DNA of 64,000 nucleotides from positions 33,618-97,617 of the forward strand of contig DASWRM010000010.1 in assembly GCA_036403155.1 (NCBI GenBank), given 5' to 3'. Below the pieces are notes generated by a model, which worked only from the letters and a program-made list of their open reading frames with translations, was not told where the DNA came from and searched no databases. Position 1 is the stretch's first letter; every line of letters begins with the position of its first letter. Below, piece after piece: positions 1 through 17,751 of the stretch. The translations under genes and the position numbers were made by a program. This stretch comes from Gaiellales bacterium. Lineage in GTDB: Bacteria > Actinomycetota > Thermoleophilia > Gaiellales > JAICJC01.

Positions 1-280
1 AGTCGATCTCCCGGTCTCGCGTGGGCAGCCGGACGGTCTTGACCCAGCCGGGACGGTGCTTGGGCGCCTGCTTCTGGTAGAAGACCTCGCCGTCGACGCC
101 GTTGGGGTAGCGCTTGAGCGTCAGCGGCCGGCCGCGAAGGTGCGGCATGAGGACGGGCGCGACGCGGCGGTAGTACTCGATCACCTCGCGCTTGGTGAAC
201 CCCGCGGCGGGATACAGCACCTTGTCCAGGTTCGTCAGCTTCAGCCGACGCCCGCCGACGGTCGCGAGCTCCTCGGTCAC
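1..280 (-). CDS. LigD-type polymerase/primase domain protein (NHEJ PolDom), N-terminal part only; the gene runs off the window
   Basis: Absent from the ORF track because no stop lies in the window. Reverse translation from GTG at 280 gives VTEELATVGGRRLKLTNLDKVLYPAAGFTKREVIEYYRRVAPVLMPHLRGRPLTLKRYPNGVDGEVFYQKQAPKH. This is the typical N-terminus of LigD polymerase domains. The GTG overlaps the ligase stop as GTGA. Confidence 0.75.
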   Translation of the reverse strand, partial: MTEELATVGGRRLKLTNLDKVLYPAAGFTKREVIEYYRRVAPVLMPHLRGRPLTLKRYPNGVDGEVFYQKQAPKHRPGWVKTVRLPTRDREID

Positions 281-1218: not shown

Positions 1219-1247
1219 GGTTTCACTCGTACACTGGTTGACACGAT

Positions 1248-2327
1248 ATGGCTCCCGGCCCTCTCTCTCAGACGATGGCCGCCGCCACGGCTGCGCGCGA
1301 GCCGGGTGGCGTGCCGAAACCGACGCGACTGGTCGCGATGGTACTCGACCGCTTCGAGCGCCTCGACGGCTCGCAGGCCGCGCGCGGCCGCGTGGGCGGG
1401 GGGATGCGGGTCGGCCTCGCCCTGCTGTTTGTCGCGAGCGCGCTCGCCGGTACGGTGCGCGCGCTGTCGGGCGGCGGCCTTCCCGGGCCGTCCATCGTGC
1501 TCCTCCTGATGTTCGCGGCCGTGCTGATGATGAACCGCATTGGCCGGTTCCTTCGCGACTGGTCACCCGTGCTGGTCATCCTGTTCCTGTACCTGGTCGG
1601 CTTCACCCTTGTGCAGCGTTTTCATATGCCGGTGTTCTACCGGCCGCAGTTCGACGCCGATCGCCTGATCGGCCTTGGGCAGCTTCCGACACTGCGCCTT
1701 CAGCACGCGATCGGGACGCCGCCCACGTGGCTCGGCGCCTATGCGGTCGGCACGTACCTGACACACTTCTTCTTCCCGCTGCTGGTCGGCTTCTATCTCT
1801 GGTGGCGCCGGAGCGAGGGTTTCACCCGGCTGATGTATGCGGATATCGTCGTCAGCGCGCTCGCATGTGTGACCACCGTACTGGCACCGACCGCGCCTCC
1901 GTGGCTGGCGGCGGAGCACGGGCTCGCTCCGGGAGTGCACGACGTCCTGCGGCACGCTCTGACGCAGATCGGCCTGAACGACCTGGCGCACTACAAGGGC
2001 GACGCGAAGGCCTACAACACGGTTGCCGCATTCCCCTCGATCCACGCCGCGTTCCCGGTGCTCGGATTGATCGCCCTCGTTCGCTACCGCGCCCCTCGAT
2101 GGGCGCAGGCGGCCCAGCTCGTGCAGCTGCTCTCCGTCTGGTTCGTGATCGTGTGGACGGGCGAGCACTACGTCGTCGACATCGTGGGCGGCGTGGCCTA
2201 CGCAGCCATCTCGTGGGTGGTCGTGAGCCGCCTCGCGATGGCGATCGACCGCTCGAGAGTCGCGAGCGCCGCAACGCTGGGGGCGGTCGGTCCGCCGCTG
2301 CGCCCGGCCGCCACCGCCGGCGACTGA
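1248..2327 (+). CDS. PAP2-superfamily membrane phosphatase / phosphotransferase-like protein
   Basis: The protein is polytopic. PAP2 C2/C3-like motifs are present (AFPSIHAAF and GEHYVVDIVGG). The exact start is uncertain. Confidence 0.6.
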   Translation: MAPGPLSQTMAAATAAREPGGVPKPTRLVAMVLDRFERLDGSQAARGRVGGGMRVGLALLFVASALAGTVRALSGGGLPGPSIVLLLMFAAVLMMNRIGRFLRDWSPVLVILFLYLVGFTLVQRFHMPVFYRPQFDADRLIGLGQLPTLRLQHAIGTPPTWLGAYAVGTYLTHFFFPLLVGFYLWWRRSEGFTRLMYADIVVSALACVTTVLAPTAPPWLAAEHGLAPGVHDVLRHALTQIGLNDLAHYKGDAKAYNTVAAFPSIHAAFPVLGLIALVRYRAPRWAQAAQLVQLLSVWFVIVWTGEHYVVDIVGGVAYAAISWVVVSRLAMAIDRSRVASAATLGAVGPPLRPAATAGD

Positions 2328-2346
2328 GTCCGAACTAGACTCAGCC

Positions 2347-3441
2347 ATGGCTGCGACCGACCGGACGGCCCGGCACCTCGAGCTGCTGATCGACACGATT
2401 GCGGCCGTCAACTCCTCGCTGGACATCGACGAGGTGTTCGAGCAGATCGCTTCGCGCGTCGCCGAGGCGCTCGATACGGACGCGTGCTTCGTCTACATCT
2501 ACGATCAGGCCGACGATCTGCTCGAGTTGCGGGCGACGCACGGCACCCGCTTCGACGACCCGGCGCACCGGCCGCGCATGCATCTCGGCGAAGGCATCAC
2601 CGGGACTGCCGCCGCACTCGGGCGGCCGATCATGATCGCCGAGGCCGCTCATCTCGATGCGCGCTTTGTTCGGTTCCCGAACCTGCCGGAGGAGGAGTAC
2701 GAGTCGATCCTCGCCGTGCCGGTGATGGCCCGCGACCGGCTCGAGGGCGCGCTCAACGTGCGCACCCGGCTGCCGCGGGCGTTCGGCGACGACGAGGTGG
2801 CTCTCCTGACTGCGATCGCGGGCCAGGTCGGCCAGGCGATCGAGAACGCAAAGCTCTACGAGCAGACGCGCGCGCGGGTCTCCGAGCTCGAGTCGCTGGC
2901 CGTCCAGGAGATCCACCACAGGGTCAAGAACAACCTCCAGACCGTCGCCTCGCTGCTTCGCTTACAGGCGCGCTCGCTCGCAAACGACGCCGCCGGCCGC
3001 GCGCTCGACGAGAGCGTGAACCGCATCCTCTCGATCGCGGCCGTCCACGACCTGCTGACGACGGCGCACCGCGACGACGTCGACATCGCCGGCCTGATCG
3101 GCAGGCTCGAGGCGATGCTCGCCCAGGATCTGGACGGCCGTGAGGTGGTCAGCTCGCTGGAGGCGGTGGTGCTCCCCGGCGAGCGCGCCACGGCGGTCGC
3201 GCTGGTCTTCTGTGAGCTGTTCCAGAACGCGATCGAGCACGGCAGGGGACGCATCGACGTCCGGCTTCACCGCGACGGGACGAGCGCCGTGCTCTCGGTT
3301 GCCGACGAGGGGATCGGGCCGCAGCCGGGCCGGCGGGAGGGACTCGGGCTGACCATCGCCGGCGCGCTCGTGCGCGAGGAGCTGCGCGGGCGGCTGGAGC
3401 TGCTGGGAAGGGCGGTGGCACGGTTTCCGGTCGCGTCCTGA
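2347..3441 (+). CDS. pdtaS: Soluble GAF-domain sensor histidine kinase, HisKA_2 type (PdtaS-like)
   Basis: An N-terminal GAF-like region is followed by the H-box HHRVKNNLQTVASLLRLQ, diagnostic of HisKA_2. A HATPase tail follows (VADEGIGP). The gene sits directly upstream of an ANTAR regulator. Confidence 0.85.
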   Translation: MAATDRTARHLELLIDTIAAVNSSLDIDEVFEQIASRVAEALDTDACFVYIYDQADDLLELRATHGTRFDDPAHRPRMHLGEGITGTAAALGRPIMIAEAAHLDARFVRFPNLPEEEYESILAVPVMARDRLEGALNVRTRLPRAFGDDEVALLTAIAGQVGQAIENAKLYEQTRARVSELESLAVQEIHHRVKNNLQTVASLLRLQARSLANDAAGRALDESVNRILSIAAVHDLLTTAHRDDVDIAGLIGRLEAMLAQDLDGREVVSSLEAVVLPGERATAVALVFCELFQNAIEHGRGRIDVRLHRDGTSAVLSVADEGIGPQPGRREGLGLTIAGALVREELRGRLELLGRAVARFPVAS

Positions 3442-4010
3442 TCGCCGAGGACGAGACGATCATCCGGCTGGACGTCCGGGCCATGCTCGAGCGGGCAGGC
3501 TTCGACGTCGTCGCCGAGGCACGCGACGGGCTCGAGGCCGTTCGCCTCGCGACCGCGCACGAGCCGGATCTCGCCGTGATGGACGTCAAGATGCCGAATC
3601 TGGACGGCATCGACGCGGCGCGTCAGATCATCGAGCGCCGGCCGATCCCGATCGTGATGCTCACGGCCTTCTCGGAAGCTGCGCTGGTCGGGCGCGCCGT
3701 CGACGCCGGCGTCTTCGGATATCTCGTCAAGCCGTTTCGCGAGAGTGACCTGCTTCCGGCGATCGAGGCAGCCCGCGCGAGGCACGCCGAGCTCGAGGAG
3801 GTTCGCGGCGAGGCAGGGTCCCTGCGAGCCGCGCTCGAGGCGCGGAAGGCGATCGAGCGCGCAAAGGGGCTGCTCATGGAGAAGGACGGGCTCAGCGAAG
3901 CGGACGCCTTCGCACGGCTGCGGGCCGCCAGCCAGCGGACGGGAAAGCCGCTGCGCGAGGTGGCCGACGCGGTGGTCGCGGCGTTCACTGCGAACGACCG
4001 TCCGGCATAA
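3438..4010 (+). CDS. pdtaR: ANTAR-domain response regulator (PdtaR-like); probable non-canonical CTG start
   Basis: Receiver plus ANTAR domains (KAIERAKGLLMEKDGLSEADAFARLRAASQRTGKPLREVA). The track ORF starts at ATG 3483, which removes the conserved beta1 strand and acidic pair (RVLIAEDETIIRLD) that is encoded in frame upstream. No ATG/GTG/TTG exists in this frame between the stop at 3143 and 3483. Confidence 0.8.
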   Translation: MIAEDETIIRLDVRAMLERAGFDVVAEARDGLEAVRLATAHEPDLAVMDVKMPNLDGIDAARQIIERRPIPIVMLTAFSEAALVGRAVDAGVFGYLVKPFRESDLLPAIEAARARHAELEEVRGEAGSLRAALEARKAIERAKGLLMEKDGLSEADAFARLRAASQRTGKPLREVADAVVAAFTANDRPA

Positions 4011-4392: not shown

Positions 4393-5313
4393 TCAGTGGT
4401 GGACGTGGTGGAAGGTCTGAGCGAACGTGTAGAACGAGGGGAACATCAGCACCACGAACATGGCGGGGAAGATCAGGAAGATGAGCGGGAAGAGCATCTT
4501 GATCGGCGCCTTCTGCGCCCGCTCCTCTGCCGTCGCCTTGCGCAGCAGCCGGCTCTCACGCGCCAGGTTACGCATGATCTGCCCGATTGAGACACCCAGC
4601 TGCTCGCCTTGGAGCACAGCGCGAACGAATGCCCGCACGCCCGGCGTGTCGCAGCGCAATAGGAGGTTGCGGAGCGCCTCCTCCGACGACAGGCCGAGGC
4701 TCTGCTCGCGGAGCGTCAGCCGCAGCTCTGCACCGAGCGGCCCGTCCACGTGCTGCGAGGCCATCTTCAGCGATGCGTTGAAGCTGAGGCCGCCCTCAAC
4801 GGTGACGACCAGCAGGTCGACGAGGTCGGGGAGCGACCGGTCGATCGCCGCGAACCGGTTGCGCGCCCGGCTCCGCACGACCGTCAGCGGGCCGAACCAG
4901 CCGATGTAGAAGGCAAGCGCGATGAATGCCAGCGTGAGCACGAACGGCGGCTGTGCCACCACGCCCAACCACACGGCCAGCCCCATCAGCGCGACGGTGC
5001 CAAGCACTCGGTAGCCGAGCAGCTTGGCTGGGGAGGTGTCGTACATGCCGGCGCCCATGAGCTGCGCGCGCATGTCCATCCGCATCTTCTCGTTCACCCG
5101 CCCGAACATGCGCTCGCCGAAGGAGTTCGCGAGCCGGTCGACTGCCGTCCGCACCGGGCTTGCACCCGCGGCCGCCTCGGGGGCGACGACGTAGCCGTAC
5201 GCCGGGATCTGCTCCAGCGTCTGCGCGGTTCGCGCACGAGGGAGGGCCAGCGCTCGCAGGAGCAGAACGATCGCGAGCCCGACGCATCCGAGTCCCAGTA
5301 GCAGCAGTGTCAT
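4393..5313 (-). CDS. tadC: Tad pilus platform protein TadC (T2SS F-domain family)
   Basis: T2SSF-type domain (LPDLVDLLVVTVEGGLSFNASL ... GVSIGQIMRNLARESR) with C-terminal TM helices. TAGGAGGG lies upstream of the ATG. Confidence 0.85.
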   Translation of the reverse strand: MTLLLLGLGCVGLAIVLLLRALALPRARTAQTLEQIPAYGYVVAPEAAAGASPVRTAVDRLANSFGERMFGRVNEKMRMDMRAQLMGAGMYDTSPAKLLGYRVLGTVALMGLAVWLGVVAQPPFVLTLAFIALAFYIGWFGPLTVVRSRARNRFAAIDRSLPDLVDLLVVTVEGGLSFNASLKMASQHVDGPLGAELRLTLREQSLGLSSEEALRNLLLRCDTPGVRAFVRAVLQGEQLGVSIGQIMRNLARESRLLRKATAEERAQKAPIKMLFPLIFLIFPAMFVVLMFPSFYTFAQTFHHVHH

Positions 5314-5325
5314 GTCGGCGCCCTC

Positions 5326-7218
5326 CTAGAGCTCGATCTTGACGATCTTCTTGATCAACAGCGACCCCGCCACGACCATCACGGAGGCCATGCAGAAGAA
5401 CACGACGCCGACCGTGGTGTGGAACAGCGGGTGCAGGTATCCCGGGTTCAGCACCGAGATTGCGAGGAGCAGGAAGACTGGCAGTGCGGTCACGATCCAG
5501 CGCGACAACCGGCCCTGCGCGGTCAGCGTCTTCACCATTCGCCGGAGTTCAGCCCGTGCGCGGATGTTCTCAGTCACCCGGTCGAGCACCTCGGCGGTGT
5601 TCCCACCTGCTTGTCGCTGGATCTGCGCCACGATTGCGATCTGACGAAGGTCGGCGTTCTGCATGCGGCGTACGGTGTCCTCAAATGCCTGATCGATGTG
5701 CATGCCCGCCTGCTCGTCGTTGACGACGCGGCTGAACTCGCTCCGCGACGGCTCGGACGCGTCCTCGATGACGACCTTCAGCGCGCCCGTCAGGCTGTGT
5801 CCCGACCGAAGCGCCGAGGCGAGCACCTCGAGGTTGATCGGCAGTTGCTCGGCGAACCGGGTCCGTGCCGATTCGGCACGCTGGTCGATCCAGGCCCTGG
5901 CAACGATGGGACCAGCCAGGCCGACCACCGCCAGTGCGGTCGCCCCGGTGAGCACGGCGAGCGCCAGACCGGCCGCGATGCCGCCGATGGTGCTCACCAC
6001 CATCAGTTGGGCGGCGCCGACGCTCACCCCGGCAACGTCGACCTCCTCCTTGAACCGCTCCCACCGCGGCTTGCCGGCAAGGGTGCGCTCCGTACGGTCG
6101 TAGATCGTCTCCGCGATGGCGGTGACGGCAGGCGTGCCGTCCTCGGGCTGCGTGAGGGCGTCCGGGTCGACGTAGCGGGTGACGCGGCGCCGCATCGCCC
6201 GACGGCCCGGCTGGACGACGACGATCACCGCGTAGGCGATCAGCATCGCGCACAGCGCCGCTACCGCGACCAGCGCAATCCATGAGGTCAGCAGCCGCTG
6301 CCACACGGTCGGGTTGTAGGAGGCGGTCGTGTCCTTGATCTCGGGCGCCCGGTAGCGGAACACCGGCGCCGTGCCATAGCCGTCGACCGACACCTGCACG
6401 TCGACGTCGGCGCCGGCGCGCGAGGGGGAGACGTACCGAAGCACGTACTGGTTGGCCAGCTGCACCCCGAGCTGGTTGAAGATCCCTCCCAGCTGCCTCG
6501 AGGTCGGCGCGTCAGTGTACGTGCCCCCGGCCCCTTGGGCCAGATCGGTCAGCGTGGTGGCATCGAAGCCCTTCCCCTCAAGCCCGACCGTGAAGATCCG
6601 CACGCCACCGTTCACGGCGTTGCCGGTGACCTCGTTCAGCGACCCCGTGCTCCCCGTATCAGCGCCGTCCGAGAGCAGGACGACCGATCCGGACTTGATG
6701 TGCGCGGAGGTGAGCATCGAGATCGCCTGGTCGGCGGCGTCGAAGATGTGCGTCCCGCTGTGTAGGGCCGGTTCGTGCGCCAGCGCGGCTGCGATCTCGC
6801 TCGCGTCGGTCGTGAACGGCAGCAGCGTCTGCGGCGTACGGCTGAACGCGACGACTGCGATCGGCTGGTTCGGCGTCCGCTGTGCGACGAAGGCACGGGC
6901 GGCCTTCATGGCGTCGGCGATCGGCGCTCCGTGCATGCTCTCGCTGGCATCGATCACGAGCACGACGCCGAAGCGATTGGAGCTCGCGTCGCCACCTGCG
7001 ACCGTGATGCCCGAGACCGGGGAGTCGTTCTCGGTGACATGGACCTCGGTCGAATCGAGCTTGGCGCCGGGCGGCAGCGTGAGCACGTAGCTGCGGCTCG
7101 GCCAGCCGAGCGAGCTGGCGCCCGAAACCGACAGGCCCGTGTCGCCGGCGAATGCCGGAGTCGCCGCGAGCCCGGCGCAGATGGTGACGATCAGGGCAGT
7201 GAGGATGCGACGTTTCAT
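5326..7218 (-). CDS. tadB: Fusion protein: signal peptide, extracytoplasmic von Willebrand A domain, then TadB platform (T2SS F) domain
   Basis: Signal peptide MKRRILTALIVTICAGLAATPAFAG. VWA domain with MIDAS-like VVLVIDASESMHG. A TM helix follows, then the T2SSF domain (LPINLEVLASALRSGHSLTGAL ... IAIVAQIQRQAGGNTAEVL). The ATG overlaps the tadA stop (ATGA). Confidence 0.85.
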   Translation of the reverse strand: MKRRILTALIVTICAGLAATPAFAGDTGLSVSGASSLGWPSRSYVLTLPPGAKLDSTEVHVTENDSPVSGITVAGGDASSNRFGVVLVIDASESMHGAPIADAMKAARAFVAQRTPNQPIAVVAFSRTPQTLLPFTTDASEIAAALAHEPALHSGTHIFDAADQAISMLTSAHIKSGSVVLLSDGADTGSTGSLNEVTGNAVNGGVRIFTVGLEGKGFDATTLTDLAQGAGGTYTDAPTSRQLGGIFNQLGVQLANQYVLRYVSPSRAGADVDVQVSVDGYGTAPVFRYRAPEIKDTTASYNPTVWQRLLTSWIALVAVAALCAMLIAYAVIVVVQPGRRAMRRRVTRYVDPDALTQPEDGTPAVTAIAETIYDRTERTLAGKPRWERFKEEVDVAGVSVGAAQLMVVSTIGGIAAGLALAVLTGATALAVVGLAGPIVARAWIDQRAESARTRFAEQLPINLEVLASALRSGHSLTGALKVVIEDASEPSRSEFSRVVNDEQAGMHIDQAFEDTVRRMQNADLRQIAIVAQIQRQAGGNTAEVLDRVTENIRARAELRRMVKTLTAQGRLSRWIVTALPVFLLLAISVLNPGYLHPLFHTTVGVVFFCMASVMVVAGSLLIKKIVKIEL

Positions 7219-8576
7219 GCCCGCACGCCCGCGAGCTTTCCGGCCGGGACGCCGCCCGGCTCGTGGAACGTGCCGTCCGGCAGCTCGACACCGTGCTTCC
7301 GGAACTTGTCGACGAAGCTCGGCCGAAGCCCGGTGGCCTCGAGCCGGCCTGTGACCACCCGGTCGGTGGTGACGCGGTCGAACCGGAACGCAAAGATGTC
7401 CTGGAGCGTGACGACATCGGACTCCATCCGCTGAACCTCCGTGATGGCGGTGACGCGGCGTGAGCCGTCCTCCAGCCGCTCGAGGTGGACGAGCAGGTCG
7501 AGCGCTCCTGCCACCTGCTGGCGGATCGCTCGCACCGGCAGGTCGAAGCCGGCCATCAGCACCATCGTCTCGATGCGCGCGAGTGCGTCGCGCGTGCCGT
7601 TGGCGTGCACGGTCGACAGCGACCCGTCATGGCCGGTGTTCATTGCCTGCAGCATGTCCAGGGCCTCGGCCCCGCGGACCTCGCCGACGATGATTCGGTC
7701 CGGCCGCATCCGCAGCGCGTTGCGGACCAGCTCGCGGATCGGGACCTCGCCCTCGCCCTCGATGTTCTTGGGGCGGGCCTCAAGGCGGAGCACGTGCCGC
7801 TGGCCGAGCTTCAGCTCGGCGGCGTCCTCGATGGTGACGATGCGCTGGTCGTTGGGCACGGCCTGGCTGAGCGCATTGAGCAGCGTCGTCTTCCCAGAGC
7901 CGGTACCGCCGGAGATGAGGATGTTCAGCTCCGCGCGGACGCAGCGGTGGAGGAAATCGACGGTCTCCTCGGACAGCGAGCCGAGGCCGACCATGTCCTC
8001 CAGTGACAGCCGCCGCTCGCCGAACTTGCGGATCGTGACGAGCGGGCCCGACAAGGAGAGCGGCGGGATCACCGCGTTGACGCGCGAGCCGTCGGGCAGG
8101 CGGGCGTCCACCATGGGTGAGGACTCATCGATGCGACGCCCGACCTGGGCGACGATCTTGTTGATGATGCGCCGCAGGTGCGACTCGTCCTGGAAGCGGA
8201 TCGGCACCTCGTAGAGACGGCCGGCGCGCTCAACCCAGACGTCGAGCGGCCCGTTGATCATGATCTCCGTCACAGAGTCGTCGGCCAGCAGTCGCTCGAT
8301 CGGGCCATGCCCGAGGATGTCGTCGGCAACCGCCTCGGCCACGAGTGCGCGGTCTTCTCGCGACAGGCCCGGCTCGGCGCGCAGGTGTCCGTCGATCGAG
8401 GACGCGACGTGGTCGCGCAGCGCGTCGCGATCTATCGCGGTGTTCGACAGCTTCGGCCCGACCTCCGAGATCACCGCCATGTGCACGCGGTTCTTGATGT
8501 CGGCGAAGGGGTCGGCCTCGAAGCTGCGCTCGTGCTGCTCGCGGCCGGCCGTGAGTCGTTCGTGGAGTTCCATCAA
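7215..8576 (-). CDS. tadA: Tad pilus secretion ATPase TadA/CpaF
   Basis: T2SSE-family ATPase with Walker A ISGGTGSGKTTLLNAL and conserved RPDRIIVGEVRGAEALDMLQAMNTGHDGS. Confidence 0.95.
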   Translation of the reverse strand: MMELHERLTAGREQHERSFEADPFADIKNRVHMAVISEVGPKLSNTAIDRDALRDHVASSIDGHLRAEPGLSREDRALVAEAVADDILGHGPIERLLADDSVTEIMINGPLDVWVERAGRLYEVPIRFQDESHLRRIINKIVAQVGRRIDESSPMVDARLPDGSRVNAVIPPLSLSGPLVTIRKFGERRLSLEDMVGLGSLSEETVDFLHRCVRAELNILISGGTGSGKTTLLNALSQAVPNDQRIVTIEDAAELKLGQRHVLRLEARPKNIEGEGEVPIRELVRNALRMRPDRIIVGEVRGAEALDMLQAMNTGHDGSLSTVHANGTRDALARIETMVLMAGFDLPVRAIRQQVAGALDLLVHLERLEDGSRRVTAITEVQRMESDVVTLQDIFAFRFDRVTTDRVVTGRLEATGLRPSFVDKFRKHGVELPDGTFHEPGGVPAGKLAGVRA

Positions 8577-9775
8577 CCCTTCCTTCGGAGCAGCCGGCGG
8601 CCGTCGGAGCCGCCGTCGGTGGTGGTCTGGGTGGAGACGACGTCCGGCTGGTAGATCGCGGCCAGCTTTGCAAACACGGCCGCCGCCTCGGACTTCGGCT
8701 TGGCGAGCACGATCGGCTCGCCCTCGTTGACTGCTTTGGGGATCTCGCGGTCGCTGGGAATGAAGATCCCGGGCTCTCGGCCCACGATGGTCGCCACGTC
8801 GGCGTGCGTGATGCCGACCCGGCTGTCGGCGCGGTTCAGCACCAGCGACACCTGATCCTGGGGGTAGCCCATGAGATCGAGCGTCTCAAGCCCCAGCCGG
8901 GTGTTCTTGAGCGAGAGGGTGTCCAGCATGCCGACGAGGGCCACGTCGCTGGAGACGTCGATCGAGGCGATCACCTCCGGCGTAAACCCGGGGGGCGTGT
9001 CGACGATCACGTATTGGTGCCGCTCGCGGAGCGCCCGGTACATCTCGGACAGGAACTCCACCGTGACAGCCGATGCCTGATCCGGCCGGCCGGGAGCGAG
9101 CAGCACGCGCAGCCCGGATCGATGGGTGCTCAGGTATCCCTCGACCTTGTCTCCGTCGATCGTTCCGGCGGCGGTGGCGAGGTCGAAGATGGTTCGGTCG
9201 GGCTTCATCCCCAGCGAGAGCCCCACGTCGCCGAACTGCAGGTCGAGGTCGACCAGCACCGCGGACGCGCCGGTCTGAGCGAGCTTCACCCCGAGGTTGC
9301 ATGCGGTGAGCGTCTTGCCCGTGCCTCCTTTCGGGCCGAGCACGACGATCATGCGCTTGGCCGCCGGCGGGACGCCATCGGTTCCCTCGCCGGGGACGTC
9401 GCGCCGCGTGATCGCCTTGTCGATCATGAACCGCAGCTGATCCGGAGTGAGCGGAAGGGTCGCGATGTCGTCCGCCCCGGCCGCGAAGGCGCGGCGGACG
9501 AAGCCGTTCGGCGATCCCGTGCAGAGAACGAGGACGGGACGATCCGGGTACTGGCGCCGCGACTCCTCGACGAGCAGCACCGCGCCGTCCGAGTCGGGCC
9601 CGCACGCCACGATCAGCAGATCGGTGCGGTTCCGCAAGGACGCCTCGCGCACGCCGCCGTAGCCGTCGACCATGGCCACGACCTCGACCTCGTCGTCCAT
9701 CGGCATTGCCGCCTTGACGGCACCGCGGTCGATCGCCGGATCGACGGCGACGAGCGCCCGGATCGTCCCCTCCAT
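8573..9775 (-). CDS. tadZ: TadZ/CpaE: atypical receiver domain fused to a MinD/ParA-like ATPase
   Basis: An N-terminal receiver-like domain is followed by the deviant Walker A VLGPKGGTGKT. It is coupled to both neighbours by 1-4 nt overlaps. Confidence 0.85.
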   Translation of the reverse strand: MEGTIRALVAVDPAIDRGAVKAAMPMDDEVEVVAMVDGYGGVREASLRNRTDLLIVACGPDSDGAVLLVEESRRQYPDRPVLVLCTGSPNGFVRRAFAAGADDIATLPLTPDQLRFMIDKAITRRDVPGEGTDGVPPAAKRMIVVLGPKGGTGKTLTACNLGVKLAQTGASAVLVDLDLQFGDVGLSLGMKPDRTIFDLATAAGTIDGDKVEGYLSTHRSGLRVLLAPGRPDQASAVTVEFLSEMYRALRERHQYVIVDTPPGFTPEVIASIDVSSDVALVGMLDTLSLKNTRLGLETLDLMGYPQDQVSLVLNRADSRVGITHADVATIVGREPGIFIPSDREIPKAVNEGEPIVLAKPKSEAAAVFAKLAAIYQPDVVSTQTTTDGGSDGRRLLRRKG

Positions 9776-10587
9776 TACTTCCCTCCGAACGAGCGCTCGA
9801 CGGCGACCGGCTTGACGCCGAAGAGCACGGTCTCGAGGGTGACGAAGTTGTCGCGGCTGTTCAGATCGAACGAGTTCTTCGCGTCCGCGCCGCGGACGGT
9901 CACCCAGAGTTTGCCGTTCTGGGAGGCGAAGGCCACGTTGGATGCCTGCGCATCGGTCAGCGCCACGACGATGTTGTCATCGCTCGTCCCGACCGTGCCC
10001 GCGTCGCCCGGCTTGACTCCCGGGGGCACGAACAGCACCGGCACGTCCTGAGCGATGATCTTCAGCACGGGACGCTGCTGGGCGCCCTGCTTCGGCACGC
10101 CGTTGCTGTCGAGCGGGATCACGTTGAAGCCGCCCAGGATGTCGACGTGGTCGCCGGCGTGCACGTAACCGATCGCGCCTGTGGCCGCATCCAGCGGGAT
10201 CGCGATCGCGCGCATGTCGTCCTTGACCTTGACCGCCGCCGCGTCGCTGGGCGCCGTCGTGAACTCCGTTGTCGTCAGCTGCGTGCCGGGGTAGACGGTC
10301 GCCGAGGCGACGCGGCCGGCGATCTGCGACGGATCTGTGATGGCGCCATCCTGGAGATCTCCGCGACGCACCTCCATCTGCTTGAACATGTGCTGGGAGG
10401 CGACGGTGTCGCCGGACGTGCCCTGTGAGATCTGCTGGTTGGCGACCAGCACCGGCACGCTCTCGTTGTCGTTGTTCAGGCTGTCGCGGTACTGCGCCAG
10501 GTAGACGAGCAGCAGGGCTACCGCGACTGCCGCGACCACCCCGCCGACCAGGACGGTTCCTCCGCGGCTCTGCATGATTCGTTGCAC
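9775..10587 (-). CDS. cpaB: Flp pilus assembly protein CpaB/RcpC (SAF-domain)
   Basis: N-terminal TM anchor, SAF-like segment (VLVANQQISQGTSGDTV) and position in the tad operon. GAAGGAGAG lies upstream of the ATG. Confidence 0.8.
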   Translation of the reverse strand: MQRIMQSRGGTVLVGGVVAAVAVALLLVYLAQYRDSLNNDNESVPVLVANQQISQGTSGDTVASQHMFKQMEVRRGDLQDGAITDPSQIAGRVASATVYPGTQLTTTEFTTAPSDAAAVKVKDDMRAIAIPLDAATGAIGYVHAGDHVDILGGFNVIPLDSNGVPKQGAQQRPVLKIIAQDVPVLFVPPGVKPGDAGTVGTSDDNIVVALTDAQASNVAFASQNGKLWVTVRGADAKNSFDLNSRDNFVTLETVLFGVKPVAVERSFGGK

Positions 10588-10609
10588 GACGTCTCTCCTT
10601 CGTTCTCGA

Positions 10610-12460
10610 TTACTGGGTGAGCACGAGCTCGCACGGGCTCAGATCGGTGAAGTCGCACTGCTGGGTCGCAGGTGCGTTGTCAACTTTGTCAACATACTTG
10701 ATGAAGTAGCCGGCCACCTGGCCCTTGCCGGGATGCTCGTCGCCCGCGCAGGGGTCCTGGTTGCCGCCATTCGATCCACCCCAGCCGGTCACGTAGAACG
10801 AGGCGAAACCGAGCACGGGGAACGTCTGGTTGCCCGGCGACTGGAACGAGTCGAACGGCACGCGGAAGATGGTGATCACCCGGCGCGGATCGGTGATGGC
10901 CGGGTACGTGCTGGGACTCGCGCAGCCGCTGGTGTTGCCCGTGCGGCCGGCCATGCCGTCCTCGACCTGGCTGGGTGAGACGCTGGCCGTCTGTACCGGA
11001 ACGCACTGCCACGGCTGGGCGGGGAAGCTCTGCACCTTGCTCGGGCACGGGTACCACGGGGAGACGAAGCCGTTGACGGCGTAGCCGGGCGCGCAGCCGC
11101 TGATGATCTCGTCCTTGAGATTCGGGATGCCCGGGTCGCAGTCGAGTGCATGGGTCTGCGACGAGCTGGAGCTGAGGTCGATGATCTTGTGCGTCCCCGG
11201 CGTGATGTCGGCTTGGACGCCGATCTGAGCGACCGCCGAGTAGGTGGCCGGCGCGATCAGGTACGGGCCGTTGTAGGACATGCCGTTGAGGCTGAACTGC
11301 GCCAGCTCGACCGGCTCGATCGTGCCTCCCAGCACGCGTGCGGCCGTGCCGAGGTCTGTCATGCACTTCACCTTGCTGCAGCCGTTCGGGACGCTGTAGA
11401 CGTCGAACCAGTCGAGCCCCGACGGGCCGGGGATGGTGACCGCCCAGTCGCTGGTCGAGCCGACGCGCGTCATCGTGCAGCCGGTTCCCGTGCACGTGTT
11501 CGACCCGATCAGCCGCAGGGCGGTCGGGGCGGTGCCCGCGACCGTCACGGTGACGACGGGCGAGCAGGCGCCGTCCGTGTACTGGCCGTCGTACGCGCAG
11601 TTGTTGGCCGACATCACCGAGCTCGACAGCGTCGTCGCGCCGCCGCCCCCGGGCCGGCCCCGGACGCCGGAGTACCCTCCGGTCGCGCTGGAGCTCGCCG
11701 TGCAGCTGACCGGGGCGGTGCAGATCTGAGCGAGCGTCCCGTTGATCGAGAACGACGTTGGCGCCGTCGCGATGATCATCCCCACCGACACGCCGGCTCC
11801 GACCGGCAACGACACGGACGACGAACTGTTGTCCCATCGGGTCAGTCCGTTGGTCGTCCCGTCGCGGGTGAGCTGCGTCTTGGCGAGCACCGCGCCGGTC
11901 GACTCGTTCACCCAGATCGCCGCGGCGTTGGTGAACGTCGGATCCGGGAAGCCGATGGGCAGGAGCCCCTCGCCGACGTCCGGCTTGAGGATCTCGGCCC
12001 GGGCATGGGCGGTGATGTCCGGATTCGCGAGCCCGGCCAGGTTGGCGACCTTGATGAACCACGGAGCCCCGGTTTCGCTGACCGTGGCGTCGACCCACTT
12101 CGTGCCGCACGGAGCCCCCGCGCTGCCGGGCGCCGCGCCGCCGTTCAGGACGACGTGGACGCTTCCGGCGGCCACACCCCCGACCTGCGGGTTGTACGGA
12201 GCGCCCGGGTTCGTCGCGCTCGGGCCGGCGTACTTCAGCGCCTCCGAGTAGACCGCGCTGTCGACGCTGGCGGTGCACGGAAAGGCGTAGACGCCGCCAC
12301 CCGCAAGCACGGCGGCATCCGCCTCGATCTGGAGGTGGCGCTTGTGCTCCCACCAGTTGCCGATGTCGATCGCGAACGACGCCATCATCAGGATGACAGG
12401 GAGGAACACGGCCACCATCACGAGCACGCCGCCGTGGTCATGCTGCCGGGCGTAGGTCAC
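10610..12460 (-). CDS. tadG: TadG-like pseudopilin/tip protein with a large Cys-rich extracellular region
   Basis: Start re-set to GTG 12460, in a GTGA overlap with the tadE-like stop. The N-terminal Tad (PF13400-type) motif is HDHGGVLVMVAVFLPVILMMASFAIDIGNWW. About 570 aa follow, containing 18 Cys by my count. Confidence 0.75.
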   Translation of the reverse strand: MTYARQHDHGGVLVMVAVFLPVILMMASFAIDIGNWWEHKRHLQIEADAAVLAGGGVYAFPCTASVDSAVYSEALKYAGPSATNPGAPYNPQVGGVAAGSVHVVLNGGAAPGSAGAPCGTKWVDATVSETGAPWFIKVANLAGLANPDITAHARAEILKPDVGEGLLPIGFPDPTFTNAAAIWVNESTGAVLAKTQLTRDGTTNGLTRWDNSSSSVSLPVGAGVSVGMIIATAPTSFSINGTLAQICTAPVSCTASSSATGGYSGVRGRPGGGGATTLSSSVMSANNCAYDGQYTDGACSPVVTVTVAGTAPTALRLIGSNTCTGTGCTMTRVGSTSDWAVTIPGPSGLDWFDVYSVPNGCSKVKCMTDLGTAARVLGGTIEPVELAQFSLNGMSYNGPYLIAPATYSAVAQIGVQADITPGTHKIIDLSSSSSQTHALDCDPGIPNLKDEIISGCAPGYAVNGFVSPWYPCPSKVQSFPAQPWQCVPVQTASVSPSQVEDGMAGRTGNTSGCASPSTYPAITDPRRVITIFRVPFDSFQSPGNQTFPVLGFASFYVTGWGGSNGGNQDPCAGDEHPGKGQVAGYFIKYVDKVDNAPATQQCDFTDLSPCELVLTQ

Positions 12461-12936
12461 GCGCACCCCGCGCCGTACACGCCGGCCGGCAGCCGCTCGA
12501 GGCGCATCGTCGCGCTGCTGGTGAACGTCGTCTGGGTCGCGCCGAGCGCGAGGAACGGGATCCACTGGTACGTTCCGCTCACGGTGACCGTCACCGGATC
12601 ACCGACGTTCGAGGTGCCGTTGGGAAAGCTGATGCAGACCTTGGCCTTGCCGGTCACGGACGACGAGCCGTTGAGGAACTCGGCGGTGTCGGCCTGCTGC
12701 CTGATCTGGTTCTGCAGAGTGCCGCCCCCGCTGCTGGGCAGCCGTGCGACGACCGCCCAGCGGGCGCCCTCGTTCGCCATCTGCTGGGCGTCCTGCCAGT
12801 AGTTGATCGCGCGGCCGAAGTCGAAGATGCCGAGGATGATGAGCAGCAGCAGCGGCAGCACGAGCGCGAACTCGACCAGTGCGACGCCGGACTCGCCGGC
12901 GTGTCGCCGTGTGCGTGGGCGGTGCCGGGCGCTCAT
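12457..12936 (-). CDS. tadE: TadE-like minor pilin
   Basis: Start re-set to ATG 12936 (MSARHRPRTRRHAGESGVALVEFALVLPLLLLIILGIFDFGRA), which is the TadE N-terminal motif. The ATG shares one nt with the stop of the upstream flp gene. Confidence 0.8.
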   Translation of the reverse strand: MSARHRPRTRRHAGESGVALVEFALVLPLLLLIILGIFDFGRAINYWQDAQQMANEGARWAVVARLPSSGGGTLQNQIRQQADTAEFLNGSSSVTGKAKVCISFPNGTSNVGDPVTVTVSGTYQWIPFLALGATQTTFTSSATMRLERLPAGVYGAGCA

Positions 12937-13094
12937 CAAAGCTTGGATGCGACGGACGCGAAGATCGCGTTCAGGTCGGGGCCGAGGGCGACGAGCGTGA
13001 TCACGCCGACGAGCGCAACGAACAGCAGCACGAAGCCGTACTCGACCATCGTCTGGCCGCTGTCGGGATGATCGGAATGCTGGATGGTGTCCAT
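12936..13094 (-). CDS. flp: Flp-family type IVb pilin (second copy, 52 aa)
   Basis: Absent from the ORF track because it is under 60 aa. Manual translation: MDTIQHSDHPDSGQTMVEYGFVLLFVALVGVITLVALGPDLNAIFASVASKL. It carries the Flp G/xxxxEY processing motif. GAAGGA lies upstream. Confidence 0.85.
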   Translation of the reverse strand: MDTIQHSDHPDSGQTMVEYGFVLLFVALVGVITLVALGPDLNAIFASVASKL

Positions 13095-13177: not shown

Positions 13178-13348
13178 CTACAGGTGGGTGGCGACGCTCG
13201 TGAAGATCGCCTTGAGGTCGGTGCCGACCGTGATGAGCGTGGCAATCGCCACGATCGAGACGATCGCGAGGATGAGGCCGTACTCGACCATCGTCTGGCC
13301 GTCCTCGCTGTCGCGGCGAGCCGCGAGCTCGAGCATGAAGTCACGCAT
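13178..13348 (-). CDS. flp: Flp-family type IVb pilin (first copy, 56 aa)
   Basis: This is the C-terminal part of track ORF 13178..13579. The sequence is MRDFMLELAARRDSEDGQTMVEYGLILAIVSIVAIATLITVGTDLKAIFTSVATHL. A strong AAGGAGGGAAG lies upstream of ATG 13348. Confidence 0.9.
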   Translation of the reverse strand: MRDFMLELAARRDSEDGQTMVEYGLILAIVSIVAIATLITVGTDLKAIFTSVATHL

Positions 13349-13425
13349 GACTTCCCTCCTTGGGGCAGTGCCCCGTCGATGTGCGCCCGCACCGTGCGGG
13401 CCTCTCCGTCCGTGCGCCATGACCG

Positions 13426-13833
13426 TCACCGCTCCGCCACCACTCGTAGGCCGGAGCCGGACGCGAGCCGGGTGAGACCGGCGACGCTCGCGTCCTCGAG
13501 GGGTCCTGACTCGACCGACCCAAGGTCGTCGATCCAGGCCTGCCGCTGATCCGACAGGTAGACCACCATCGACGTACATGCAGCGAAGCGGTGGGTGATC
13601 AGCGGGCGGACGACTGTTTCGTCCAGGTAAGTGACGTCGACCACGACCAGGTCGGGGTCGAACTGCTCAGCCGCCGCGTCGAACGACGCCCCCGGGAAGG
13701 GCACGCTGATCACGTCGGCCACCTCGCGAAAGGCGGGCTCGAGCGCGCTCAGCATGAGCGGCGGGAACCCGACGAGCAGCACGCGCCGCGGTGAGCGGGC
13801 ACGTCGTGATCGTCGGATTCGGCGCACGTCCAT
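13426..13833 (-). CDS. Small receiver-like (CheY-fold-like) protein, paralog A; function unknown
   Basis: ORF 13426..13875. The start is probably ATG 13833, by alignment with paralog B and by the GACACT-N7-ATG arrangement. It shares the block PDLVVVDVTYLDE and VPFPG with the 15442..15837 protein. It lacks the N-terminal acidic pair of true receivers. Confidence 0.65.
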   Translation of the reverse strand: MDVRRIRRSRRARSPRRVLLVGFPPLMLSALEPAFREVADVISVPFPGASFDAAAEQFDPDLVVVDVTYLDETVVRPLITHRFAACTSMVVYLSDQRQAWIDDLGSVESGPLEDASVAGLTRLASGSGLRVVAER

Positions 13834-13840
13834 GTCGGTC

Positions 13841-13846
13841 AGTGTC
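13841..13846 (-). promoter_or_regulatory. -10-like box GACACT 7 nt upstream of ATG 13833 (leaderless-type)
   Basis: Read from the sequence. It parallels the GAGAAT-N6-ATG arrangement of paralog B. Confidence 0.3.
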
Positions 13847-13891
13847 CGGCCGCTCCCAACCGCCGGCCATCGCACGAAGCGATGATTCCGG

Positions 13892-13912
13892 CGGGTGATT
13901 TTTTCTCACCCG
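13892..13912 (-). terminator. Hairpin after luxR-A (CGGGTGA-GAAAAAA-TCACCCG on the minus strand)
   Basis: A 7-bp stem with an A6/T6 run, which is unusual in this GC-rich DNA. It starts 8 nt after the luxR-A stop. Confidence 0.35.
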
Positions 13913-13919
13913 GGGTGCG

Positions 13920-14594
13920 TCAGACGCCGGCGGCCGCGCGCAGCTGCTGGTAGCGAGCCGCGGCGGCCGAGCGGTTCGGTGCCTCGAGCTTCGCGAGAAT
14001 GTGCGACACGTGCGTGCGGACGGTCTCCACCGAGATGCTGAGTTCCGCCGCCACGCCGCGGTTGGTCATGCCCGACGCGATCCGCTCGAGCACGTCCCAC
14101 TCCCGCTCGGTCAGGCGCCGCTGCGACGGCAGCAGCTCAGCGAGCGGCGCCGACGCGGCCTGCGCCCGGAACTCCGCCAGCAGCTCGGCTGTCATCCTCC
14201 GCGTCAGCGTCGCCTCGCCGCGCGCCGCGGCACGGATCGCGTCCGTGAACGTCTGCACGGGCATGTCCTTGGTCAGGTAGCCCATCGCGCCCGCCCGGAT
14301 CGCGCTCAGCATCGGCTCGGCAGCACCGTCCACGCCGGTCGCGATCACCGTCCCGCCGGCTCCGGCGATGGCCTGGATCGCGAACAGCGCACCGCGAGGG
14401 GCCGGCTCGAGCGACAGGTCGACCAGCACGACCGCGCCCTTCGCGCGCGCGGCCAGCCCGATCGCCGATTCGGCGCGTGTCGCCGTGCCGACGATCTGAA
14501 ATCCGCTGTCGCGCAGCGACCACTCGAGCCCTCGCAGCGAAAGCTCTTGTGAGTCGCAGATGCTGACAGCGATCGTGTCGGGAGCCCCATGCAT
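13920..14594 (-). CDS. LuxR/NarL-family response-regulator-like transcription factor, paralog A (orphan)
   Basis: Start re-set to ATG 14594, because MHGAPDTIAVSICD aligns with MDTAPNTPSAGICD of paralog B. It has a receiver-like domain (VLVDLSL, GYLTKD) and a GerE HTH (LTEREWDVLERIASGMTNRGVAAELSISVETVRTHVSHILAKL). Confidence 0.85.
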   Translation of the reverse strand: MHGAPDTIAVSICDSQELSLRGLEWSLRDSGFQIVGTATRAESAIGLAARAKGAVVLVDLSLEPAPRGALFAIQAIAGAGGTVIATGVDGAAEPMLSAIRAGAMGYLTKDMPVQTFTDAIRAAARGEATLTRRMTAELLAEFRAQAASAPLAELLPSQRRLTEREWDVLERIASGMTNRGVAAELSISVETVRTHVSHILAKLEAPNRSAAAARYQQLRAAAGV

Positions 14595-14595
14595 C

Positions 14596-14631
14596 TGCAA
14601 TGCCCGCCCCATTCGTTTTGTGGGCATTGCA
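14596..14631 (-). promoter_or_regulatory. Perfect 10-bp inverted repeat TGCAATGCCC-N16-GGGCATTGCA between the predicted -10 box and the luxR-A start codon
   Basis: Read directly from the sequence. The repeat begins right after the TATCGT box, and its right arm ends 1 nt before the ATG. The spacer is AT-rich relative to its surroundings. Confidence 0.6.
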
Positions 14632-14660
14632 ACGATACGTGCATGCGGCACGGCCGTCAA
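14632..14660 (-). promoter_or_regulatory. Sigma-70-like promoter TTGACG-N17-TATCGT for luxR-A
   Basis: The hexamers and the 17-nt spacer were read from the minus strand, in the 94-bp gap after the luxR-B stop. Confidence 0.5.
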
Positions 14661-14688
14661 CGCGGCCAGACGACGTCGTGCCGCGCGC

Positions 14689-15351
14689 TCAGGGCGTGTG
14701 CAGCGCGTGCAGCCGGTGGTAGGCCGCGGCTGCGGCGGACCGGTTCGGCGCCTCGAGCTTGGCGAGGATGTTCGAGACGTGCGTCCGCACGGTTTGCACC
14801 GAGATGCTGAGGTCGCCTGCGACACCGCGGTTGGTGCGGCCCTGAGCGACCAGCTCGAGCACCTGCCATTCGCGTCGCGTCAGCCGCCGGTCTGACGGCA
14901 GCAGCTCCGCGGACGGCGTCCGGGCGGCCAGCGCGCGGAACTCGTGGACGAGCGCGCTGGTCATAGAGCGCGATATCGGCGCTTCGCCGCGCGCTGCGGC
15001 GCAGATCGCCTCCGTCCAGGCGTGGAGCGGCAGATCCTTCGTCAGGTAGCCGGTCGCCCCCCAGCGGAGCGCCCGGAACAGCGCCGCCGGTTCGCCGCTG
15101 GTGCCCGTGGCGATCGCCGTGCCGCCGACAGCGGAGACCGCGGCAACCACGTCGCCGGCGCCCTCGAGATCAACGTCGACCAGCACGACGCACCCGCGTG
15201 CGCGGCCCGCGAGCGCCAGCGCCCCCATGCGTGTCCGCGCCGTCGCGAAGACGGGGATCGATGCCGCCTGGAGGGCGGCGGTCAGCCCTGCGAGCGCGAT
15301 CTCGTTCGCGTCGCAGATGCCTGCCGAGGGCGTGTTGGGAGCCGTGTCCAT
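14689..15351 (-). CDS. LuxR/NarL-family response-regulator-like transcription factor, paralog B (orphan)
   Basis: ORF 14689..15372, with the start at ATG 15351 or TTG 15372. Its architecture and GerE HTH (LTRREWQVLELVAQGRTNRGVAGDLSISVQTVRTHVSNILAKL) match paralog A. Confidence 0.85.
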   Translation of the reverse strand: MDTAPNTPSAGICDANEIALAGLTAALQAASIPVFATARTRMGALALAGRARGCVVLVDVDLEGAGDVVAAVSAVGGTAIATGTSGEPAALFRALRWGATGYLTKDLPLHAWTEAICAAARGEAPISRSMTSALVHEFRALAARTPSAELLPSDRRLTRREWQVLELVAQGRTNRGVAGDLSISVQTVRTHVSNILAKLEAPNRSAAAAAYHRLHALHTP

Positions 15352-15392
15352 ACCACCTTGGTGAAGCCGCAACAGAAGTGGAACGTATTGCC

Positions 15393-15421
15393 ACCGTACG
15401 GGCGCGCCGGGCTGCTGTCAA
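15393..15421 (-). promoter_or_regulatory. Sigma-70-like promoter TTGACA-N17-TACGGT for luxR-B
   Basis: A consensus -35 hexamer and a TANNNT -10 with a 17-nt spacer, in the gap between 15442 and 15351. Confidence 0.55.
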
Positions 15422-15441
15422 CGCAGCGGAGGCGCCGTGCA

Positions 15442-15837
15442 TCAGCGGCCGACGAGCCGCAGCGCCCGCTGCGGGAGCAGCCCGAGCAGCGCATCCGGGC
15501 TGACGTCGTCGGCCGGGCCCGACCAGCCATGGCCGAGGTCGTCCACCCACCTTCCTCCGCCCTCCGACAGGAACACCAGGACGGATCCGAGGTGGCGGAA
15601 CCGCTCCATCAGCAGCGGCCGCACCCGCCGCTCGTCGAGGTACGTCACGTCGACCACCACGAGGTCGGGCCGCACGGCCGTCACCGCCCGGTCGAACGCC
15701 GTTCCGGGAAACGGCACCGCCGAGACATCGATGGAGTCGCCCAGCGGGCCCTCCAGCGCGCGCATCATCAGCGGGGTCAGCCCCACCAGCAGCGCGCGCC
15801 GCCGCCGTGACGTGCGAGGGCTGCGGCGGTCGTGCAT
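15442..15837 (-). CDS. Small receiver-like protein, paralog B; function unknown
   Basis: This 131-aa protein is MHDRRSPRTSRRRRALLVGLTPLMMRALEG...VPFPGTAFD...PDLVVVDVTYLDERRVRPLL. By eye, roughly half of the aligned positions are identical to paralog A. Confidence 0.7.
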   Translation of the reverse strand: MHDRRSPRTSRRRRALLVGLTPLMMRALEGPLGDSIDVSAVPFPGTAFDRAVTAVRPDLVVVDVTYLDERRVRPLLMERFRHLGSVLVFLSEGGGRWVDDLGHGWSGPADDVSPDALLGLLPQRALRLVGR

Positions 15838-15843
15838 GCAGCG

Positions 15844-15872
15844 ATTCTCCGGGCGTCGCCCGACCGCGTCAA
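15844..15872 (-). promoter_or_regulatory. Promoter-like TTGACG-N17-GAGAAT-N6-ATG (leaderless) for small receiver-like protein B
   Basis: Read from the minus strand. The -10 box ends 6 nt before ATG 15837. Confidence 0.45.

Positions 15873-15888: not shown

Positions 15889-17735
<1,847 letters not shown>

Positions 17736-17751
<16 letters not shown>

Follow-up and report, generated by a model that had tools for sequence, protein, structure and literature searches.

Atypical LuxR-type regulators and an orphan small-protein family as a possible control region of a Gaiellales tad/flp pilus locus

In a 64-kb stretch of DNA (~70% G+C; hereafter referred to as the window) from an uncultured soil actinobacterium of the Gaiellales (Thermoleophilia), four minus-strand genes within positions 13426-15872, namely small-B, luxR-B, luxR-A, and small-A, are followed directly on the 3' side by flp-1 and a complete tad locus (Table 1). 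We tentatively regard this arrangement, with a confidence that falls slightly short of even, as the control region of a Gaiellales-type tad/flp pilus, in which atypical LuxR-type regulators would act together with a lineage-restricted small alpha/beta protein. Concerning the two parts of this proposal, the control of small-A, flp, and the tad genes by a LuxR via a conserved palindrome appears probable from the promoter sequences, and the role of the small protein as the partner of the LuxR is possible, a claim that we put forward with some reserve. As a preliminary description made from the window alone had stated, the four genes share one strand, the minus strand (13426-15837), directly 5' of flp-1, and their position as the regulatory head of the locus recurred in relatives, in which the order luxR, small gene, and tad operon was found in 19 loci carrying an A-type (small-A-like) gene. 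Neither a match of the small proteins to a known unrelated family nor a lack of linkage to tad/flp genes was encountered.

The regulators and the small proteins

The two LuxR/GerE regulators, described beforehand as about 220 amino acids (aa) in length, were found to be of 220 and 224 aa and 56% identical to each other (E 4e-77), and both matched the GerE helix-turn-helix domain (64.3 bits for luxR-A and 66.4 bits for luxR-B; cut-off 23.5). The receiver-like character attributed to their N-terminal domains was borne out for luxR-A, which exceeded the Pfam cut-off for Response_reg (35.2 bits against 30.2), but not formally for luxR-B, which carries a four-residue deletion after beta3 and stayed below the cut-off with 18.0 bits. 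Full-length alignment of luxR-A to the PDB entries returned NarL (9e-22), followed by ChrA, VraR, DesR, and DevR (E down to 3.5e-14). The phosphorylation pocket of both proteins is incomplete in that the acidic pair begins with Cys and not with Asp, while the second Asp, the acceptor Asp (VLVD), the Thr, and the Lys (GYLTKD) are kept. This C-D in place of D-D, correctly noted in the preliminary description, was also present in 19 of the 20 tad-linked LuxR homologs. On these alignments, the C-D pocket is a family trait of the tad-linked LuxRs, and luxR-A and luxR-B are atypical NarL/FixJ-type response regulators. No histidine kinase gene was found between abcF and flp, the nearest one being located beyond tadC, and the regulators are probably kinase-independent, although phosphorylation may still be conceivable because four of the five pocket residues (D, D, T, K) are kept.

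The flanking small proteins of 131 and 135 aa are indeed paralogous, being 50% identical (E 4e-34) and sharing the block PDLVVVDVTYLDE, as had been noticed beforehand. Neither matched any Pfam family at E<1 or any NCBIfam entry, and hence no characterised family. A search of 5.8 billion proteins yielded 118 clusters, all of them unnamed or "hypothetical" and one of them from a Gaiellales genome, and a profile search of 1.84 billion representatives gave 36 clusters only, with no link to ordinary receivers. The 24 genome loci identified were all from Gaiellales, Thermoleophilia, or unclassified actinobacterial metagenome-assembled genomes, and no description of the family was found in the literature searched. 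Small-B matched the family hidden Markov model with an E of 6e-48. For small-A, the ratio of nonsynonymous to synonymous substitution rates (dN/dS) was 0.24-0.26, and thus small-A is taken to be a real, constrained protein. The window small-B was observed to diverge unusually fast (dN/dS 0.52-0.68 against its orthologs, which gave 0.11-0.23 among themselves), and the genome carrying it is also the only one with a second luxR.

AlphaFold2 modeled small-A (predicted local distance difference test score, pLDDT, 83; predicted template modeling score, pTM, 0.78) as a disordered basic tail followed by beta1-alpha1-beta2-alpha2-beta3-alpha3-beta4, and a second model, built for a homolog of 55% identity, gave a matching fold (pLDDT 89-96). 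The top PDB matches of the small protein in Foldseek were receiver domains (KdpE, NarL, PhoP, DivK, and PhyR), with ~82 aligned columns, a template modeling (TM) score of ~0.49, and an E of ~0.009. Invariant across the whole family were two hydrophobic residues of beta1 and D66 at the end of beta3, the latter being kept in 34 diverse members and matched to the phospho-acceptor position by topology only. Such an Asp and such structural matches are what one would see in true phospho-accepting receivers that serve an unlinked kinase as phospho-sink or connector, a role entertained in the preliminary description. The acidic pair expected after beta1 is, however, missing (VLLVG-F/L-P/T-P in the main clade and LLVS-x-x-P in a distant clade), no Lys is conserved, and past beta4 both models continue with a beta-hairpin and one helix where a receiver has alpha4-beta5-alpha5. 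Furthermore, no receiver (REC) match was found in Pfam at E<1, comparison by hhalign with the LuxR receiver domains of their own loci gave a probability of 1%, and the REC matches in the PDB were non-significant, so that we hold the phospho-sink role to be very unlikely. In the models, the fold of the small proteins resembles that of a receiver only in the first four beta-alpha units, and weakly so; their description as receiver-like proteins without the acidic pocket therefore stands at the fold level, whereas membership of the receiver family cannot be shown by sequence homology.

The N-terminal tail conforms to a conserved basic pattern, MxxRxxRRxxxxRxxRR. Cle proteins bind cyclic di-GMP (c-di-GMP) through an arginine-rich stretch. 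Given that these proteins are described as CheY-like c-di-GMP effectors (PMC5677366), a single-domain receiver-like fold with a basic tail could be taken for a Cle-like receptor of a second messenger such as c-di-GMP, relaying its signal to the LuxR or to the Tad motor. This idea appears improbable, since the tail is N-terminal with Arg positions that are poorly conserved in the distant clade, high-GC genomes readily yield Arg-rich tails, no cyclase or phosphodiesterase gene was seen nearby, and neither REC nor PilZ homology was found.

Other assignments of the small proteins were tried and rejected. A marginal match to ARF1 and the small GTPases, obtained with the first profile (E 0.002), disappeared with a broader profile, which left only the non-significant receiver matches in the PDB; moreover, the P-loop GxxxxGK[ST] is lacking (the position reads VGLPPLTLSAL) and the predicted topology, beta-alpha-beta throughout, is the wrong one. 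A possible similarity to STAS-type anti-sigma antagonists (VTYLDE against VTFIDS) was supported neither by Pfam nor by the top 50 Foldseek matches. The segment SPRRVLLVG, which could be mistaken for a Tat signal, forms the buried beta1 strand with pLDDT >90 in two models, and in the prepilin fusions described below the small domain comes to lie on the side of the prepilin that faces the cytoplasm.

Promoters, palindrome, and inheritance of the luxR/small-A cassette

All four promoter-like elements listed in the preliminary description are present (Table 1), and those of small-A, small-B, and luxR proved to be conserved in orthologous loci. The promoter scan found two of them (TTGACG-N17-GAGAAT and TTGACG-N17-TATCGT) against 0.1 expected. 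The small-B element recurred as TTGACC-N17-GAGAAT at 5-6 nucleotides (nt) from the ATG in all nine B-type loci and appears to be a canonical, constitutive-type, leaderless promoter, and a sigma70-like element of the form TTGACN-N17-TAnnnT was kept 5' of luxR in most loci. The region upstream of small-A could be aligned in all 19 loci, with a palindrome, a GTGCGAT box, a -10 element (an nAnnnT hexamer 6-8 nt before the aligned ATG), and the ATG itself in register, which looks like the layout of a leaderless, activator-dependent promoter. This layout also supports the annotated start of small-A and its basic tail.

The palindrome has the consensus GGGTGAG-N5-(C/A)TCACCC, and its position is kept in all 19 A-type loci as well as in L026. 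It is unique in the window, and with at most one mismatch it was found 24 times in 492 kb of related loci compared with 0-4 times in shuffled sequences, all 24 matches lying 5' of small-A, just after a B-type gene, or 5' of luxR (the last in L005 and L006, where a perfect copy was found). After the B-type genes the same layout of palindrome, 46 nt, -10 element, and ATG is repeated. In L023 and L024 it drives a third small copy, and in L001-3 and L022 it drives a membrane-protein gene with luxR next in line. The palindrome accompanies small genes even where luxR is not a neighbour (L023, L024, and L021), which, together with the basic tail, might point to the small protein itself as the DNA-binding reader. 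We give this alternative very little weight because no DNA-binding fold was detected in the small protein, because a 7-5-7 inverted repeat is most obviously read by dimers of GerE-type helix-turn-helix domains, and because L005 and L006 carry the palindrome 5' of luxR. In the distant locus L027, everted arms (CTCCCCC-N5-GGGGGAG, 1375-1393) were seen 82 nt before the ATG of the small gene, with no luxR nearby.

The gap between the small gene and flp had a fixed length of 75 or 78 nt in 13 of the 17 loci having both (13349-13425 in the window, and the corresponding spacer in L003-L019), so that flp lies in frame with small-A, with two or three TGA codons between them. No promoter is evident in this gap, and small-A and flp would therefore be co-transcribed. 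The spacer contains a GC hairpin, found at the equivalent place in other loci with varying sequence and weak covariation (4/6 pairs), that might mark mRNA processing or stabilisation before the pilin cistron. The leaderless start of small-A, set against the strong Shine-Dalgarno sequence of flp, suggests that small-A is made in regulator-like, non-stoichiometric amounts. Rfam contained nothing relevant to the conserved non-coding stretches.

The gene order small-B, luxR-B, luxR-A, small-A was confirmed, and with its two pairs of paralogs it had been taken for a mirrored duplication, that is, for a two-gene unit of small and luxR copied in mirror orientation in this genome. A neighbour-joining tree separated the small genes into two old clades, A-type and B-type, which differ in neighbours and promoters. 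The A-type gene was located between luxR and the tad operon, as the first gene of the latter, in 19 of 19 loci (17 with flp next and two with tadE directly after the small gene and no flp). B-type copies sit directly after abcF, with no luxR or tad gene within 10 kb in L016 and L021, and small-B falls into this widespread abcF-adjacent clade with its own conserved promoter. The close relatives L001-3, whose small-A is about 81-84% identical to that of the window, carry abcF, small-B, a gene for a small membrane protein, one luxR, small-A, and flp in this order, and two luxR genes were found only in the window, where luxR-B clusters with the one luxR gene of L001-3, luxR-A being placed immediately outside this group. 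Because these relatives have one luxR, the second one is taken to be a lineage-specific tandem copy, with which the similarity of the two luxR promoters and the co-directional arrangement of the genes agree. In addition, L021 (positions 1-4000) shows the gene order of the window minus the whole block from luxR to tadC, with only the palindrome left after small-B, and in two other genomes (L023/L007 and L024/L009) the block is inverted relative to abcF and small-B; the block is therefore regarded as an insertion/deletion unit next to small-B. By these trees and synteny comparisons the mirrored duplication is refuted, and we assign it next to no probability. The sequence identities were also incongruent, in that the window and L002 share 84% in small-A and 59% in small-B, and L002 and L023/L007 share 93% in small-B and 65% in small-A, which suggests that movement or recombination involves the tad block as a whole.

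Within the block, pairwise distances of small-A correlated with those of luxR at 0.85, and still at 0.84 in a partial correlation after removal of the machinery signal, whereas the correlation of small-A or luxR with the machinery was 0.29-0.54 (0.29-0.38 for small-A) and the five machinery proteins correlated among themselves at 0.94-0.97. Locus L011 provides a natural example of such a separation: here luxR and small-A share 89% and 92% identity with their L015 counterparts, while flp and the machinery are 45-74% identical to those of the window and 30-62% to those of L015, and the small gene and flp lie 184 nt apart rather than 78. On these identities, L011 is a natural recombinant that carries the luxR/small-A cassette of one type on the flp and machinery of another, so that small-A stays with the regulator when pilin and machine are swapped. 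Taken together, the comparisons indicate joint inheritance of luxR and small-A in a single cassette that can be separated from flp and the machinery, in keeping with a partnership between the two. On inspection by eye, the L011 spacer (10406-10592) looks like a 5' half of one type joined to a 3' half of the other.

A proposed circuit and the prepilin alternative

In the circuit that we propose, a LuxR dimer would bind the palindrome and activate transcription of small-A, flp, and the tad genes. The small protein, a degenerate receiver-like domain presumably keeping nothing of the pocket but the Asp at the acceptor position, would bind the regulator, most simply through the receiver domain of the LuxR, and tune its activity. 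Inducible small-A would then provide feedback, constitutive small-B would set the basal state, and the two luxR copies in the window genome might split the task.

The same location of small-A, always the first gene of the tad operon and 75-78 nt before flp in most loci (11 nt in L027), would fit a cytoplasmic pilus accessory acting on the Flp prepilin, TadV, TadZ, or TadA rather than a regulator, a factor that might retain the prepilin leader, pass it on, or gate its processing. In-frame small-linker-Flp proteins having a Flp_Fap domain occur in seven clusters from about six lineages, and the 89% identity between two of these clusters, P0094 and P0126, indicates that the fusion is not a one-off error; one fusion contig even retains the small-A-type upstream palindrome. 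In a distant clade (P0136, L027-L030), moreover, the small gene lies 11 nt before flp with no adjacent luxR; a metagenome scan gave no contig of this subfamily beyond the one already known. Judging from gene arrangement, the small protein appears tied to the pilin gene at least as deeply as to luxR. A role in biogenesis nevertheless seems unlikely to us on balance, since small-A keeps to luxR rather than to flp or the machinery in L011 and in the correlations given above, B and B' copies are not beside flp, and two loci have the small gene followed by tadE with no flp. As for the fusions, none was present among the 24 species-representative loci, and cleavage by prepilin peptidase would separate the two parts, so that fusing them may cost hardly anything and is weaker evidence than it looks at first. 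The idea that the small domain docks on the Flp leader was rejected, as in the AlphaFold2 model of the natural fusion P0094 (pTM 0.58) the two parts are independent and the linker between them is disordered.

The two readings could also be joined by assuming that the small domain is a prepilin-coupled signalling module. In the fused form, the Flp prepilin would then be extended at its N-terminus by a folded cytoplasmic part of ~130-180 residues including the linker, a prepilin peptidase cut at G/XXXXEY would release the small domain, and the split small protein would sense the prepilin pool or its processing and signal to the C-D LuxR. We consider this a long shot. Its consequence would be that pilin supply feeds back on transcription of the pilus operon without a kinase, and the fusions, if functional, would widen what the leader of a type IV prepilin can be. 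Neither a folded domain ahead of a prepilin leader nor a transcription switch operated by pilin maturation was found described in the literature searched.

Several observations weigh against the control of the pilus genes by a LuxR and the small protein as its partner. Linkage within a single recombination block, and not physical co-evolution, could be all that the cassette signal reflects. Between the window and L002, small-A is 84% identical and the LuxRs only 55-64%, and thus small-A and LuxR do not always change together. The lack of an adjacent luxR in the distant clade belongs here too, as does the strong constraint on B-type copies (dN/dS 0.1-0.2) in L016 and L021, where neither luxR nor tad is adjacent. 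With regard to the operator, several loci have a palindrome with a degenerate right arm, and the palindrome could also act as a terminator hairpin of the upstream gene.

Known systems and neighbouring features

The control of Tad pili by a LuxR-type regulator is already known. PprB of Pseudomonas aeruginosa, which together with PprA controls the flp-tad-rcp genes, carries a LuxR/GerE-type helix-turn-helix domain and is encoded beside the tad locus. The two-component pair PprA-PprB is reported to control the type IVb/Flp pili of this organism (PMC6821963). The window regulators resemble PprB as response regulators associated with type IVb/Flp pili, the homology being compared at the family level only. 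PprB, however, has a kinase, PprA, and a regular receiver, whereas the window has no adjacent kinase, a C-D pocket, and a pilin operon that opens with the gene of a small orphan protein. With atypical NarL/OmpR regulators of the type of HP1043 from Helicobacter pylori, which is described as a phosphorylation-independent response regulator (PMC8345958), they share a degenerate receiver pocket and the absence of a partner kinase, but differ in that four of the five pocket residues (D, D, T, K) survive.

PilG and PilH are single-domain CheY-like adaptors of motility organelles, and the N-terminus of TadZ/CpaE is an atypical receiver domain. The small proteins are comparable to Cle, PilG, and PilH in being stand-alone proteins of receiver-like fold encoded with a surface-organelle system and presumably acting on it. 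Those proteins, however, are bona fide REC members, while the small family is without detectable REC homology, acidic pair, and Lys and differs in its C-terminal third. TadZ likewise has a degenerate receiver-like domain encoded in tad loci, but the small proteins are unrelated to the TadZ N-domains of these loci by profile-profile comparison (hhalign probability 0.3%, E 0.22).

What appears to be new here is the C-D regulator family tied to these tad loci, the orphan small protein, which is invariably the first cistron and whose old A and B paralogs have promoters of the inducible and the constitutive type, respectively, and the sporadic prepilin fusions; no description of C-D regulators, of the small first cistron, or of such fusions was found in the literature searched. 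Thermoleophilia are an abundant soil lineage with few cultured members. To our knowledge, little is known about the regulation of Tad/Flp pili in Gram-positive bacteria and nothing for Thermoleophilia. The locus offers an operator-like palindrome, a C-D LuxR family, and a small protein that always heads the pilus operon, and if the latter is the partner of the regulator, they would constitute a compact, kinase-free control circuit for a colonisation organelle. Because all members come from metagenome-assembled genomes, tests would need heterologous hosts.

Table 1. Features of the window around the regulatory genes (ORF, open reading frame)
Feature	Position	Strand	Remark
GAF-HisKA_2 kinase	2347-3441	+	nearest kinase to the regulators, beyond tadC
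REC-ANTAR regulator	3483-4010	+	partner of the GAF-HisKA_2 kinase
tad machinery, tadE to tadC	4393-12936	-	Pfam matches
tadC	4393-5313	-	tad machinery, Pfam
VWA-tadB fusion	5326-7218	-	tad machinery, Pfam
tadA	7215-8576	-	tad machinery, Pfam
tadZ	8573-9775	-	tad machinery, Pfam
cpaB	9775-10587	-	tad machinery, Pfam
tadG-like	10610-~12460	-	tad machinery, Pfam
tadE	12457-12936	-	tad machinery, Pfam
flp-2 prepilin	12936-13094	-	ORF
flp-1 prepilin	13178-13348	-	leader ...EDG/QTMVEYG; starts 77 nt after small-A
GC-rich hairpin GCCCGCAC-G-GTGCGGGC	13385-13401	-	between small-A and flp-1; Shine-Dalgarno AAGGAGGG 3' of it
small-A	13426-13833	-	135 aa, A-type member; first cistron of the flp-tad operon
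-10-like GACACT	13841-13846	-	7 nt before small-A ATG; transcript presumably leaderless
GTGCGAT box	13869-13875	-	abuts -35 position of small-A promoter; alignment of 19 upstream regions
19-bp 7-5-7 palindrome GGGTGAG-AAAAA-ATCACCC	13893-13911	.	-78 to -60 from small-A ATG, centre ~-69; candidate LuxR operator
luxR-A	13920-14594	-	224 aa; alternative ATG at 14627
luxR-A promoter TTGACG-N17-TATCGT	14632-14660	-	promoter scan; similar in sequence to luxR-B promoter
luxR-B	14689-15351	-	220 aa from ATG; ORF extends to TTG at 15372
luxR-B promoter TTGACA-N17-TACGGT	15393-15421	-	read from sequence
small-B	15442-15837	-	131 aa ORF, B-type member of the orphan small-protein family
small-B promoter TTGACG-N17-GAGAAT	15844-15872	-	promoter scan; 6 nt before ATG, leaderless type
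abcF (ABC-F ATPase)	15889-17751	-	Pfam ABC_tran x2, ABC_tran_Xtn, ABC_tran_CTD; conserved upstream neighbour of B-type small genes

Within the tad machinery, the stop codon of flp-2 and the start codon of tadE overlap (TGATG, 12934-12938), which suggests translational coupling. The T2SSF domain of the TadB platform protein is fused to a von Willebrand A domain and a signal-like N-terminal segment, and a tblastn query with this VWA-TadB fusion gave matches at the equivalent position in every tad locus examined. A rough search of the window turned up no recognisable prepilin peptidase gene.

Many related loci contain the ~90-110-aa small membrane-protein gene mentioned above, which has no Pfam match and is absent from the window; it sits between small-B and luxR or between luxR and small-A (for example, L002 8790-9054 and L010 ~9590-9910, as well as L004, L011, and L015, on the opposite strand). 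A 285-aa multi-pass membrane protein with a GWGD motif and no Pfam match is encoded divergently from the small gene in the distant locus L027. Convergent with tadC, the GAF-HisKA_2-HATPase kinase and the REC-ANTAR regulator (2347-4010) have a domain layout that resembles that of the mycobacterial PdtaS/PdtaR pair, and in L021 this pair directly adjoins small-B with no tad block between them. The pair is flanked in the window by an ATP-dependent DNA ligase gene (277-1566, minus strand; DNA_ligase_A_M and A_C domains), a neighbour that is kept in L021.

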